From Tidjanibacter sp. (GTDB taxonomy: Bacteria; Bacteroidota; Bacteroidia; Bacteroidales; Rikenellaceae), in the NCBI GenBank assembly GCA_045656405.1, contig JAZORC010000002.1, forward strand, positions 91,572 to 155,571: a stretch of DNA of 64,000 nt, given 5' to 3'. Each line of letters starts with the position of its first letter. Positions within the stretch are counted from its first letter, which is position 1. The translations under genes and the position numbers were made by a program. Below, piece by piece: positions 18,733-58,917 of the stretch. The notes beneath the pieces were generated by a model that was given only the letters and a program-made list of their open reading frames with translations, searched no databases and was not told the DNA's origin.

Positions 18733-20064
18733 ATGAACATTATCAAAGAGGCTCGCGAGAATCAAACCGCGATTATCAAAATCACCGTTTCGGAGGCTGA
18801 CTATGCAGCAGAGGTGGACAAAAAACTCCGTGAGTACAAACGTAAAGCAAACATTCCTGGCTTCCGCCCTGGTATGGTGCCTATGGGTATCATCAACAAG
18901 ATGTACCGCAAAGGCGTAGTTGCCGAGACCGCCTATAAGATGGCTTCGGACAACTGCTTTGCATACATCGAGAAAGAGGGTATCGACTATATGGGCGATG
19001 TTATGCCCAGCGACGAGCAGGGTGCTTTCGACTTCGACAACAACACCGACCACGAGTTCATCTTCGAGGTAGGTTTGGCCCCCGTTGTTGATTTGGAGCT
19101 CACCGAGAAAGACAAAGTTACCCGCTACAAAATCAAAGTTGACGAGGAGATGCGCTCGGGCTACCGTAGCCAGTTCCTCCGCACCTATGGCCGCTTGGTT
19201 GATGTAGATGTTGTGGAGAAGGACGAGGCTGTTATGTGCACCCTCGACAATGGCGAGATTAAGACCGAGGATGCATACGTTGGCCTTATCAGTATGACCG
19301 ACGAGGAGCGCAAACCCTACATCGGTAAGAAGGTTGGCGACCAGATGATTGTGAATGTAAATGAGCTCTACAAGAGCGAGCAGCAGAGGGCTTCGGTTCT
19401 TGGTCTTAAAGAGAACGAGCTCGCAAGCATCAACCCCGAGTTCAACCTCACCATCACCAAAATCCGCAAATATGCCGACCCCGAGATGAACGAGGAGTTC
19501 TTCAAGATGGCTTTCCCCGCAGGTGACGTTACCACCGAGGAGCAGTTCGAGAAGATGATTGATAAGAAGATTGAGGAGGAGCTCAAAAAGGAGAGCGACT
19601 ACGTCTTCACCCAGACCTTGCGCGAGTACCTCTTGGAGAAAGCAGCTCTCACCCTCCCCGAGGACTTCCTCAAACGCTGGCTCTTGGCTATCAACGAGGG
19701 TAAGTTCACTATGGAGGAGATAGAGAAAGACTTCGCACCCTTCGCAGAGATGATGAGCTGGACCGCAATCCTCAAATTCTTCGCAAAGAAACTCTCCGTA
19801 GAGGTTAAACCCGAGGATATGGAGGCCGAGGCAAAGGCTTATGCAGCAGCACAGTTTGCACAGTATGGTATGATGAACGTGGCAGACGAGATGCTCACCA
19901 ACTACGCACAGCAGATTCTCTCGAACAAAGAGGAGTCCAACAAACTCATCGAGAAGGTCTATGAGGCAAAGGTTGTAGAGGCTGTTACTCCTTTGGTTAA
20001 GGTTTCCAATAAGAGTGTGACCATTGCAGAGCTTAACAAAATCCTCGCTAAAAAAGCAAAATAG
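18733..20064 (+). CDS. tig: Trigger factor
   Basis: Ribosome-binding signature ANIPGFRPG; Bacteroidota-type sequence; upstream of clpP-clpX. Confidence 0.93.
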   Translation: MNIIKEARENQTAIIKITVSEADYAAEVDKKLREYKRKANIPGFRPGMVPMGIINKMYRKGVVAETAYKMASDNCFAYIEKEGIDYMGDVMPSDEQGAFDFDNNTDHEFIFEVGLAPVVDLELTEKDKVTRYKIKVDEEMRSGYRSQFLRTYGRLVDVDVVEKDEAVMCTLDNGEIKTEDAYVGLISMTDEERKPYIGKKVGDQMIVNVNELYKSEQQRASVLGLKENELASINPEFNLTITKIRKYADPEMNEEFFKMAFPAGDVTTEEQFEKMIDKKIEEELKKESDYVFTQTLREYLLEKAALTLPEDFLKRWLLAINEGKFTMEEIEKDFAPFAEMMSWTAILKFFAKKLSVEVKPEDMEAEAKAYAAAQFAQYGMMNVADEMLTNYAQQILSNKEESNKLIEKVYEAKVVEAVTPLVKVSNKSVTIAELNKILAKKAK

Positions 20065-20075
20065 AAGGTAATTTC

Positions 20076-20149
20076 TTCGTTACGCTTGAAGGCGGCTTCC
20101 TCATTTACGATAAGTAAACTGCGGAGCCGCCTTCTTCGCAAGCCTTGAA
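20076..20149. repeat. Dispersed hairpin element, copy 1 (core TCCTCATTTACG-N4-GTAAACTGCGG)
   Basis: Core, flanks and spacing shared with 58727-58801. Confidence 0.8.
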
Positions 20150-20253
20150 ATTCCTCTTCTATTTTGCTTTTTGCGTTTTGGGATAGGCTGCGGGCTCGAT
20201 CCTTCTTTTGGCACAAAAATCCCTCCACAAAACCCACTCGCGGGGAAAAGATG

Positions 20254-20281
20254 TCTAACGTCCAACGTCTAACGTCTAACG
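20254..20281 (+). repeat. TCTAACG heptamer array (4 copies)
   Basis: TCTAACG TCCAACG TCTAACG TCTAACG. Confidence 0.92.
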
Positions 20282-20311
20282 ACGCGGGCAACAAGTCGCC
20301 CGAGGAATTAT

Positions 20312-20365
20312 TAAGGTCATTAAGGACTTTAAGGATATTAATGTCCCTAACTTCCCTAACTTCCC
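20312..20365. repeat. Degenerate 9-mer array (6 units)
   Basis: TAAGGTCAT TAAGGACTT TAAGGATAT TAATGTCCC TAACTTCCC TAACTTCCC. Confidence 0.8.
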
Positions 20366-20402
20366 TATTGGGTAGAGCAAAGTCTGCACTAAAAGTTTTT
20401 GG

Positions 20403-20444
20403 TGAAGCTTTTTACAAAAAGCTTCAAGAAAATTTGTACCTTTG
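20403..20444 (+). promoter_or_regulatory. clpP promoter with an 11-bp perfect palindrome over the -33 region
   Basis: TGAAGCTTTTT-AC-AAAAAGCTTCA (20403-20426) and TACCTTTG (20437-20444). Confidence 0.6.
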
Positions 20445-20508
20445 GGGTTTGATGGGTTGCATTGTGGTGTAACCTTTGCAATGACGAATTATAATAATAG
20501 GTAAGCAT

Positions 20509-50791: not shown

Positions 50792-51278
50792 ACACACGCC
50801 CCCGCCCTTCGGGCACCCCCTCTAACATAGAGGGGGAATAGTTGCTATACGATGAGGAATGAGAGGATAAATAATTTGGTTGAGCAGAAGGATTTGCGTC
50901 GTAAATTGCGCCGAAAATCGACTCCCGAGGAGATTGCACTCTGGAAGGTATTGAAGGGGAAACAGGTTGCAGGATGCCAATTCCGTCGCCAATTTTCGGT
51001 GGGGGTATATGTGTTGGATTTCTATTGTCCCAAGGCTAAATTATGTGTAGAAGTGGATGGTATGATGCACCATTCGGAGGAAAATCAAAAACACGACAAG
51101 GCTCGCGATGCATTCCTCGCCACACGAGGAATAGAGGTGTTAAGGGTTGATAATCAAGCATTGTGGAGTTGTAGCGATTTGGTTGTTGCAACAATTCAAG
51201 ATAGATTAAAAGTCCGTCTTGCGGATAAAAATTCCCCCTCTAAATTAGAGGGGGTGCCCGAAGGGCGGGGGCGTGTGT
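50792..51278. mobile_element. Putative minimal element: DUF559 gene bounded by 48-bp inverted repeats
   Basis: 50792-50839 and 51231-51278 are reverse complements at 46/48 nt; no TSD seen. Confidence 0.6.
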
Positions 51279-51310
51279 CATTGAGTGAATGGAAAGAGGA
51301 ATTCCAATGA
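50852..51310 (+). CDS. DUF559 (Vsr-like PD-(D/E)xK) endonuclease-domain protein
   Basis: RKLRRKSTPEE.LW, FRRQFSVG.YVLDFYC, EVDG..H, DKARD.FL..RGIEVLR. Confidence 0.9.
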   Translation: MRNERINNLVEQKDLRRKLRRKSTPEEIALWKVLKGKQVAGCQFRRQFSVGVYVLDFYCPKAKLCVEVDGMMHHSEENQKHDKARDAFLATRGIEVLRVDNQALWSCSDLVVATIQDRLKVRLADKNSPSKLEGVPEGRGRVSLSEWKEEFQ

Positions 51311-58692: not shown

Positions 58693-58917
58693 CTCCACCT
58701 TTCGGCTGTGCCTTGTGGGCGATTTCTGCGTTATGCTTTTGTTTTGTCATCCTCATTTACGCTCGGTAAACTGCGGTGCCAAAACAAAACCAAGCCTTGA
58801 ACTCCCCTCACAAAACCCAGCCGCGCTATGTGGGGAGTATCTTTGCAAAACCACCCCAAATTGTGGGGACTTTTGTCGTTTTGCTCCACCTTTCGGCTGT
58901 GCCTTGTGGGCGATTTC
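58693..58917. repeat. 34-bp exact direct repeat (58693-58726, 58884-58917) around a 157-bp segment
   Basis: CTCCACCTTTCGGCTGTGCCTTGTGGGCGATTTC twice. Confidence 0.92.
58727..58801. repeat. Dispersed hairpin element, copy 2
   Basis: TCCTCATTTACG-CTCG-GTAAACTGCGG core plus CAAGCCTTGAA 14 nt later, as at 20098-20149. Confidence 0.8.

Follow-up and report, generated by a model that had tools for sequence, protein, structure and literature searches.

A stop-codon-abutting palindromic hairpin family in a Tidjanibacter-like genome and in other bacteria

The 64,000-nt stretch of DNA analyzed here (positions 91,572 to 155,571 of contig JAZORC010000002.1; hereafter the window) belongs to a Tidjanibacter-like Rikenellaceae genome (G000; 1.74 Mb, 96% complete), and it carries two copies of a long hairpin element, the first at the stop codon of the trigger factor gene tig and the second in the spacer between the divergent genes valS and lon. 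Both copies are members of a family of imperfect palindromes of approximately 125 nt. A fuzzy search for the conserved core of the element returned 102-103 copies in G000, and a covariance model comprising the core and the adjacent stem returned 120 copies, two of them in the window, with pairing kept among the copies as the earlier, sequence-only reading of the window had anticipated.

Hairpin copies at tig and in the valS-lon spacer

The features of the two loci are as follows; P4 denotes the variable stem next to the apex.

18733-20064, + strand: tig (trigger factor) open reading frame, Pfam Trigger_N E=2.5e-29, followed by clpP and clpX
20062-20064, + strand: tig stop codon TAG; the final tig codons form the outermost 5' strand of the copy 1 hairpin
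20051-20172, + strand: copy 1, full hairpin element of ~122 nt, from sequence and DNA fold
20076-20097, + strand: copy 1 inner 5' arm, loop motif TTCGTTACGCTT (20076-20087) and P4 5' strand GAAGGCGGCT (20088-20097)
20098-20124, + strand: copy 1 apex core TCCTCATTTACG-ATAA-GTAAACTGCGG, from exact pattern match and pair counts
20125-20149, + strand: copy 1 inner 3' arm, P4 3' strand AGCCGCCTTC (20125-20134), TTCG, conserved motif CAAGCCTTGAA (20139-20149)
20188-20241, + strand: right-half remnant of another (B-type) copy, CTGCGG and GCTCGATCCTTCTTTTGGCACAAAAATCCCTCCACAAAACCCACTCGC, including CACAAAACCCA at 20226-20236
58703-58823, + strand: copy 2, full hairpin element of 121 nt in the divergent valS-lon spacer
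58750-58776, + strand: copy 2 apex core TCCTCATTTACG-CTCG-GTAAACTGCGG, flanked by P4 TTTTGTTTTGTCA (58737-58749) and TGCCAAAACAAAA (58777-58789)
58884-58917, + strand: left-half remnant, a solo duplicate of the copy 2 5' outer half, CTCCACCTTTCGGCTGTGCCTTGTGGGCGATTTC; the first copy is at 58693-58726

The sequence-only reading had described an invariant core, TCCTCATTTACG-N4-GTAAACTGCGG, between stems that had been exchanged completely and still paired. The core is indeed exact at both loci and on the + strand of each, where 100 shuffles gave an expectation of zero; the motif T[T/G]CGTTA[C/T]GCTT precedes it at 20076-20087 and 58727-58738, and exactly 14 nt separate it from CAAGCCTTGAA (20139-20149 and 58791-58801). 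The stems flanking the two cores, GAAGGCGGCT/AGCCGCCTTC and TTTTGTTTTGTCA/TGCCAAAACAAAA, are unrelated in sequence yet complementary within each copy. The intervals first delimited, 20076-20149 and 58727-58801, are real parts of the element, but the whole hairpins are larger and span 20051-20172 and 58703-58823. Likewise, the shared downstream sequence CACAAAACCCA is present at 20226-20236 and 58810-58820, but its origin differs between the loci: in copy 1 it lies in the separate right-half remnant, and in copy 2 it is part of the element's own outer 3' arm.

The outermost pairing of copy 1 joins AAAAAGCAAAATAG (20051-20064), which is the end of tig with its stop codon, to CTATTTTGCTTTTT (20159-20172), and this is a 14-nt exact reverse-complement match that begins at the stop codon. 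At the apex, the apical stem has 5 bp and the loop 5 nt, one C is bulged and there is a T.C mismatch; the copy matches the covariance model with 71.8 bits (E=7e-21), and when folded as DNA its + strand reaches -33.5 kcal/mol (z -7.7) and its - strand -36.7 (z -8.3). In copy 2 (52.3 bits, E=2e-14), the outer stem is formed by CGGCTGTGCCTTGTGGG (58703-58719) and CCCCTCACAAAACCCAGCCG (58804-58823). The strands of this copy are an extreme case of unequal folding, with -19.8 kcal/mol for the + (sense) strand (z -2.1) versus -32.9 for the - (antisense) strand (z -6.6). The right-half remnant downstream of copy 1 has identical 3'-arm modules in full copies elsewhere, and homologous stacks of right halves lie 3' of tig in sister species; tandem 5' outer halves, such as the duplicate beside copy 2, are also present at other loci.

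The tig-clpP spacer (20065-20508, 444 bp) is nearly all repeats: the full hairpin, the right-half remnant, a heptamer array and a 9-mer array. From the sequence, this spacer appears to leave little room for a conventional clpP promoter. The arrays, at 20254-20365 of the window, consist of heptamers (TCTAACG/TCCAACG) and then 9-mers (TTAAGGNCN), and such arrays start a few bases 3' of many elements or remnants elsewhere in the genome (e.g., contigs C2, C11 and C20). G runs (GGGGGGG) are common at the junction between the hairpin 3' end and the heptamer arrays.

Architecture, gene polarity and strand asymmetry of the family

The hairpins have a modal length of 120-128 nt and a modular build, in which an apex is followed outward by P4, an internal loop and outer stems that are either recurrent or unique to a locus. 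The 27-nt apex is almost invariant; its stem has 5 bp and its loop 5 nt, with a single bulged base and a single mismatch. The internal loop has the form CGTTR on the 5' side and GCCTW on the 3' side in 55/101 copies of G000 and in 83/139 copies of other taxa, and a second loop class reads GCACC/GGCAM. Three outer stems recur, namely O1 (AAAAACGCATATAAC/GTTCTATGCGTTTTT), O2 (GCGAGCACATCTCGTGGG/CCTCACGATATGCACTCGC) and O3 (GCGAGTGTGCCTTGTGGG/CCTCACAAAACCCACTCGC). Conservation is concentrated at the apex and the internal loops, and variation is greatest in the outermost stem. The family bears out the long hairpin with asymmetric conserved looping and fully exchangeable stems that had been proposed from the two window copies, and it adds the bulged base.

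Covariation was measured on 72 distinct sequences from G000 and other genomes. Pairing is kept in 84.7% of stem cells, versus 69.0 +/- 0.8% after shuffling (0/500 shuffles attain a level as high) and 33-47% after sliding of the partner columns. Both sides have changed in 14/19 pairs, and every P4 position displays all four Watson-Crick pairs. The apical stem covaries as well (TTTAC/GTAAA, TTTGC/GCAAA, CCTAC/GTAGG and CTTAC/GTAAG, with CATAC/GTATG in more distant species). Many copies are also nearly identical to one another: 29/102 copies in G000 have a paralogue that is >=95% identical over 123 nt, whereas two compared species differ by ~9% genome-wide, which indicates that spread or homogenization of the family is recent.

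A second repeat (..TTTCTGTCGAAACTTTCGGGAGCACCACCAGCACAAAAGTGCCGTTACGGC) was observed fused straight to the core, where it replaces the normal left arm and the core variant ACCTCA... is found. This repeat carries a small hairpin of its own, GTGCCGTTACGGCAC, and the chimeras are tandem with a period of ~128-132 bp. Examples outside the window are C6 15609-15741, C20 73981-74239 and C3 31752-31882.

The position of the element relative to genes is strongly polar. By crude open reading frame calls, 69/103 copies follow a co-oriented frame of >=120 aa with 25-70 nt between the end of its stop codon and the core, and in 46 of these the distance is 40-49 nt; the stop codon thereby falls at the hairpin base. 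A converging frame at the same distance on the other side was found for only 4 copies. In other taxa (Alistipes, Tidjanibacter, 'Bacteroidaceae' and Muribaculaceae metagenome-assembled genomes), the corresponding numbers are 67 co-oriented versus 1 converging, and the same polarity is seen in Proteobacteria, for example 3' of tesB in a Pseudoalteromonas isolate. Among the 49 cases looked at first, every stop codon was TAA or TAG; stop usage in this genome is itself unusual, with 539 TAA, 403 TAG and 104 TGA (52/39/10%) among frames of >=200 aa. The copies lie behind housekeeping genes (tig, infB and others) that are dispersed along the chromosome and do not form cassette arrays, and ~10% of the copies, including copy 2, lie between divergent genes.

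The two strands of the element do not fold equally well. With RNA parameters, the antisense strand (i.e., the complement of the upstream gene) is the more stable in 97/103 copies of G000 and in 114/127 copies of other taxa, and with DNA parameters the counts are 98/103 and 124/127, respectively. The mean sense-minus-antisense difference is +7.4 kcal/mol. G.U pairs number 395 on the antisense strand versus 199 on the sense strand, and P4 mismatches on the sense strand are more often A.C than G.U (77 vs 44).

Furthermore, the elements follow one orientation relative to replication, the direction of which was taken from contig GC skew. The core-sense strand lies on the G-rich strand of the contig in 97/103 copies (90/103 with local 30-kb windows), compared to 54% of genes, and this holds for 64/70 stop-adjacent copies and 26/33 remaining ones. 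If, as is customary, the G-rich strand is taken for the leading one, the elements would be located almost exclusively behind leading-strand genes.

Turnover at orthologous loci and distribution

Comparison with sister species revealed that element loci are conserved over speciation while the inner parts of the element are replaced. The tig site is filled in nine species, in which tig is 84-95% identical at the DNA level, and it is filled by differing subfamilies. Species by species, the outer 3' arm reads as the reverse complement of the resident tig end, with its stop codon and its private substitutions (AAAAAGCAAAATAAGCG/CGCTTATTTTGCTTTTT in G003, GCAGAAATAGCAG/CTGCTATTTCGC in G007 and AAGAAAGCAAAATA/TATTTTGCTTTCTT in G014). 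One to four right halves lie 3' of tig, and each of them ends in the complement of the tig end; in more distant congeners, the site is empty. At infB, the 3' arm complements ~15-40 nt of coding sequence, and 8/49 copies show an exact reverse-complement match that has the stop codon as its start and coincides with the hairpin base.

At orthologous loci with flanking genes 84-97% identical, inner modules of types A, B, C and D interchange within a retained outer stem. The same pattern, in which the locus is kept and the modules are exchanged as symmetric blocks, was seen at a yajC-like gene, at infB, at other genes and in a 362-kb sample of G014. The left halves of old copies vanish, and the right halves pile up downstream (up to four), with the first base of each solo right half positioned exactly after the apical loop. 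A polar 5' truncation of the kind left by retroelements was considered and rejected, as right-half motifs exceed left-half motifs just moderately.

The orthologous sites that lack the element carry native terminators of bidirectional design, which open with the stop codon and have the form TAA-AAAAACGC..stem..GCGTTTTT. At the empty sites L189 (G004), L191 (G007), L164 (G004) and L165 (G010), the native terminators are TAA-AAAAACGCGGGCTAC...GTAGCCCGCGTTTTTTT, and stop-abutting terminators therefore seem to be what is usual in genomes as compact as these. Filled sites have the element in place of the terminator, and the base of the O1 outer module is the same as the native terminator base (AAAAACGC...GCGTTTTT), with an A-tract, a GC stem and a T-tract. 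The C-termini of the encoded proteins are also altered where the element is present: KKAK* of Tig becomes KKHA*, RTESK* becomes RTEKGM* or RTEKAI*, and KAN*/KAK* becomes KNRI*. In several cases the element itself supplies the stop codon and new last residues.

Among 40 species of the genus, 28 carry 5-142 copies and 12 carry none. In the Bacteroidales, 42/251 sampled species were positive (34/183 genera), and for many of these the copy counts are lower bounds, i.e., at least the number recorded. The remainder of the phylum yielded a single weak match in 1/300 genomes. The exact core is present at >117 loci of public genomes, and sporadic Proteobacterial genomes carry 1-32 copies, such as Pseudoalteromonas sp. 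T1lg48 (L087, NZ_PQCC01000006.1, 2657-2683) and a Moraxellaceae metagenome-assembled genome with 32 copies (L198, L199). These Proteobacterial copies have the same 27-nt core and the loop motifs GGCGTTA/GCCTTG, and they lie 43-70 nt past a co-oriented stop codon; the same 23 specified core bases are shared by several Bacteroidales families and Proteobacteria. This patchy, cross-phylum distribution is the pattern of a horizontally moving element. Collections of plasmids, phages and IMG/VR viral contigs were searched and gave no match, so that there is no obvious vector.

The element did not correspond to a known family in the searches performed. Rfam 15 at its gathering threshold reported only a tRNA in the whole window, and at E<=10 the two copies gave only chance matches to long-hairpin models, the best being sroC with 18 bits against a cut-off of 45. 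The literature, searched by topic and by core sequence, contained no description of the family.

Nature and spread of the element

We consider it somewhat more probable than its negation, at roughly 0.55, that the family is a non-autonomous repeated DNA palindrome, i.e., an interspersed hairpin resembling repetitive extragenic palindromic (REP) sequences, MITEs (miniature inverted-repeat transposable elements) as well as attC sites, which abuts stop codons and spreads by hairpin-directed copying, and not a conventional non-coding RNA gene. The sequence-only reading had left a choice between a REP- or attC-like single-stranded DNA structure and a non-coding RNA; the former fits the family better and the latter less well, given that the antisense strand folds better and that orientation follows GC skew, each in 97/103 copies. 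The same reading had taken the paired stems as evidence of selection on pairing. The covariation is strong, but selection is not its sole source: arms are templated at several loci and modules are block-exchanged between paralogues, and palindrome maintenance at the DNA level can thereby mimic compensatory evolution. The features that define the family, namely stop-codon abutment with strict polarity, terminator replacement, right-half stacks and a cross-phylum range, were missed by that reading.

Under this interpretation, the relevant structure would be single-stranded DNA of the better-folding strand, the one complementary to the gene. New copies may be written on the stop-codon side by copy-choice, either replication template switching or conversion over short homology, with hairpins or the bases of terminators (for instance the AAAAACGC...GCGTTTTT base that is held in common) as the partners. 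The strand being synthesized would then snap back on the hairpin and copy its 5' flank, by which the palindrome would be made and extended. New inner modules, copied from paralogues, emerge beside the stop codon, at sites that themselves stay stable over speciation, and turnover of this kind is what the orthologous loci display. The recognition site of a trans-acting protein may be the invariant apex, bulged base and mismatch included. The stability of palindromes depends on the lagging-strand template, and the near-uniform orientation to replication could reflect either strand-specific insertion or the loss of copies whose more stable hairpin is on that template. Transcription of the upstream gene would put the hairpin at the 3' end of its mRNA, where it probably also acts as a terminator or a 3'-end structure; as the stop codon is part of the hairpin, an effect on translation termination is possible too.

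Template switching at quasipalindromes, with snap-back synthesis, copies mismatches across arms, extends complementarity into the flank and has a stability dependent on the lagging-strand template. It would account for the apparent compensatory change, the flank complementarity and the strand dependence seen here. However, it is known at single sites and not as a means of propagating a conserved multicopy family, and it leaves the invariant apex unexplained.

Several known systems share part of this profile. REP sequences, together with bacterial interspersed mosaic elements (BIMEs) and the REPIN-RAYT system (REP doublets and their associated tyrosine transposases), are high-copy extragenic palindromes that often lie just 3' of genes, form clusters or arrays, have subfamilies with compensatory differences and are thought to act as protein-recognized single-stranded hairpins. 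They are, however, only 20-40 nt long with a 5' GTAG-like tetranucleotide and often occur as inverted pairs, whereas the present element has 120-130 nt and a conserved apex, abuts the stop codon with strict polarity, includes inverted gene-end copies and has no Y1/RAYT gene in its 28 carriers of the genus.

The attC sites, such as the ~125-bp repeats of Vibrio cholerae, are imperfect palindromes of ~60-140 nt with variable sequence, retained structure and extrahelical bases; the bottom strand is the active fold, and the sites, which have the upstream frame's stop codon at or within their start, are oriented relative to replication. The present element likewise has one strand that folds better (97/103 with RNA and 98/103 with DNA parameters) and one orientation to contig GC skew, and O1 begins with ...ATAAC and ends with GTT.. 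in partial likeness to the R'' and R' boxes, as does an Alistipes subfamily (..YTAAC/GTT..). Dissimilar from attC, in which the base (boxes R''RYYYAAC/R'GTTRRRY) is conserved and the apex varies, the present element has an invariant apex and a locus-specific base, O2 and O3 lack the boxes, and the copies are scattered after housekeeping genes without cassette arrays, also in lineages where integrons are not expected.

MITE-like palindromes (ERIC/IRU, Correia/NEMIS, RPE and SMAG) are similar in being imperfect palindromes of ~100-170 bp with tens to hundreds of copies and a patchy distribution, and also in being co-transcribed with neighboring genes and able to act on mRNA stability or termination. 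They differ in that the present element has no target-site duplication and no cognate insertion sequence (IS) or transposase, its termini are its least conserved part, it is strictly oriented to the gene and to replication at a fixed stop-codon position, and its core is identical in two phyla. Lastly, intrinsic terminators and the elements that home to them (group IIC introns, and IS110-type insertions in REP or terminator hairpins) share the terminator position and the O1 base. The present element is nonetheless a ~125-nt hairpin with conserved internal loops and a T-run in only 25/71 cases, and it lies within or replaces the terminator stem, whereas the homing elements insert after it; no intron or IS accompanies it.

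Candidate partner enzymes were sought in the carriers. Y1/RAYT proteins (PF01797) were absent from G000 and from all 28 positive congeners, in searches whose controls matched, and also from three other Bacteroidales genomes tested (Alistipes, Bacteroidaceae and Muribaculaceae metagenome-assembled genomes). Reverse transcriptase (RVT_1) was absent from G000, G012, G014, G015 and 15 other positive species, and most carriers are without it. The family thus does not qualify as an IS200/IS605-derived PATE, which would call for TnpA (Y1), nor as a repeat of retroelement origin, which would need a reverse transcriptase to be mobilized. An all-against-all protein comparison of G000 for an autonomous version uncovered no multicopy family, only 9 two-member families and no IS, and a scan for isolated core halves returned solo right halves and chance matches and no gene-bearing split copy. 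Neither a target-site duplication nor a conserved terminal cleavage motif was seen at filled-versus-empty or swapped junctions, and no canonical dif site was found for comparison with the core. The proposal of a protein-recognized structure has the invariant apex in its favor, while the check for a co-occurring nuclease or recombinase found none. A DUF559 nuclease gene at 50852-51310 of the window, with a second at C7 68084-68512, is among the few two-copy genes of the genome, and its presence does not track the hairpins; DUF559 was rejected as a partner, being absent from carriers of 100-142 copies such as G003, G012 and G014. The hairpin and palindrome nuclease SbcD has no homologue in the 40 sampled congeners and is found in B. 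thetaiotaomicron and many other Bacteroidales. Its absence was rejected as a permissive condition, because it is missing genus-wide from carriers and non-carriers and is present in approximately half of the carriers in other families; the genus-wide absence could help long palindromes to persist without distinguishing carriers from non-carriers.

It should be noted that several observations weigh against spread by hairpin-directed copying. The GC-skew bias has the same sign elsewhere but is weaker (84/133 with 8-kb windows, by which G000 itself gives 83/103), and it could stem in part from a preference for highly expressed leading-strand genes. Gene polarity and the fixed distance of 40-49 nt are equally predicted by an RNA-level function in the 3' untranslated region. 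A T-run (>=4 T at the 3' base) follows only 25/71 full hairpins, and a terminator role is consequently not general; a simple promoter and terminator scan is blind to hairpins of this length. In a crude exact-match test, gene-end pairing was weakly above its control, with matches of >=8 nt in 8.2% of cases versus 3.5% after swapping flanks. Pairing with the coding region as a general rule was rejected, since it holds for a subset (tig, infB and ~8-16 more) and elsewhere pairing starts at or just after the stop codon. No clean pair of empty and filled sites was found in very close relatives, and template switching and snap-back are deduced from their products. Finally, the apex is conserved across phyla with no protein partner found, and replication errors alone would not conserve it.

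An extended version of this interpretation, which is possible but which we hold to be doubtful, addresses the conserved apex. It sees in the family an unrecognized class of selfish hairpin without a transposase of its own, which would home just past stop codons, overwrite the terminator or the last codons, copy the gene end by snap-back and leave an ordered stack of right halves as a CRISPR-like record, its apex being read by a conserved host replication or recombination protein. Such a host protein would explain the occurrence of the same 27-nt core in Bacteroidota and Proteobacteria.

A function at the RNA level has to be weighed against copying of DNA. The element may be a cis-acting RNA at mRNA 3' ends that serves termination, protection from 3' exonucleases or ribosome stalling through sequestration of the stop codon, with an apex that binds an RNA-binding protein and copies that are by-products of duplication or conversion. 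The strict polarity with the stop codon at the hairpin base (69 vs 4, and 67 vs 1 in other taxa), the replacement of native terminators, the T-run after a third of full copies and the strong covariation are all in line with it. REPs within 15 nt of a stop codon, moreover, are reported to affect translation and stall ribosomes in E. coli (PMC12306157). The polarity could come from the insertion process or from a role of the RNA at the mRNA 3' end, and these are not mutually exclusive. However, in 97/103 copies the sense RNA folds less well than the other strand, which disfavors a pure RNA explanation, and in P4 A.C mismatches outnumber G.U (77 vs 44), contrary to the expectation for selection on the sense RNA. 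An orientation that follows replication in 97/103 copies, the location of copy 2 and ~10% of copies between divergent genes, and the patchy cross-phylum distribution also argue against it, and the inverted coding copies, right-half stacks and near-identical paralogues are products of events at the DNA level. We therefore regard this explanation as unlikely.

A dedicated site-specific enzyme that reads the folded strand, in the manner of attC/IntI or REP/RAYT, seems equally improbable. Here the apex and loops would be the binding or cleavage site, modules would be exchanged by cut-and-paste and the enzyme would be encoded by a single-copy gene. Such an enzyme would suit an apex that is nearly invariant from Bacteroidales to Proteobacteria, with its extrahelical and mismatched bases conserved, as well as solo-half breakpoints exactly at the apical loop and the exchange of symmetric blocks. 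The bottom strands of attC and the ends of IS200/IS605 elements have a single folding strand and a fixed orientation to replication, and by analogy the better-folding strand and uniform orientation of the present element may point the same way; read as a duplex, the core also has a putative 11-5-11 layout like that of a tyrosine recombinase core site. Against this stand the lack of Y1/RAYT in 28/28 positive congeners, the absence of a reverse transcriptase, of a DUF559 association and of any multicopy gene in G000, and the finding of neither a target-site duplication nor a conserved terminal cleavage motif. Furthermore, attC conserves the base and varies the apex, the reverse of the pattern here, and the locus-specific inverted gene-end copies are unexplained by cut-and-paste.

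It is highly improbable that the family is not mobile and consists of native intrinsic terminators in concerted evolution by gene conversion, the apex being the ancestral loop of one successful terminator: the O1 module does have the native terminator base (AAAAACGC...GCGTTTTT) and loci are conserved between species, but empty orthologous sites within the genus have unrelated native terminators, 12/40 congeners are without copies while others have up to 142, the 23 specified bases of the core are identical in several Bacteroidales families and Proteobacteria, no T-run follows two thirds of copies, and some copies, such as copy 2, are in promoter regions.

If spread by hairpin-directed copying holds, then covariation as spectacular as that of this family can stem from palindrome maintenance and block exchange at the DNA level, and it would be no proof of a functional RNA. 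Approximately 7% of the genes in these small Rikenellaceae genomes would end in an element that has so far gone unannotated. Since the element replaces terminators and occasionally rewrites C-termini, it would shape operon boundaries, such as that between tig and clpP-clpX, as well as protein ends in abundant gut bacteria. An invariant core in two phyla, without a transposase, reverse transcriptase or RAYT, would imply either a new hairpin-recognizing enzyme or spread coupled to replication, and either route would add to the known modes of DNA movement. The stacked remnants, in turn, would constitute a built-in relative chronology that could be used for strain tracking in metagenomes.

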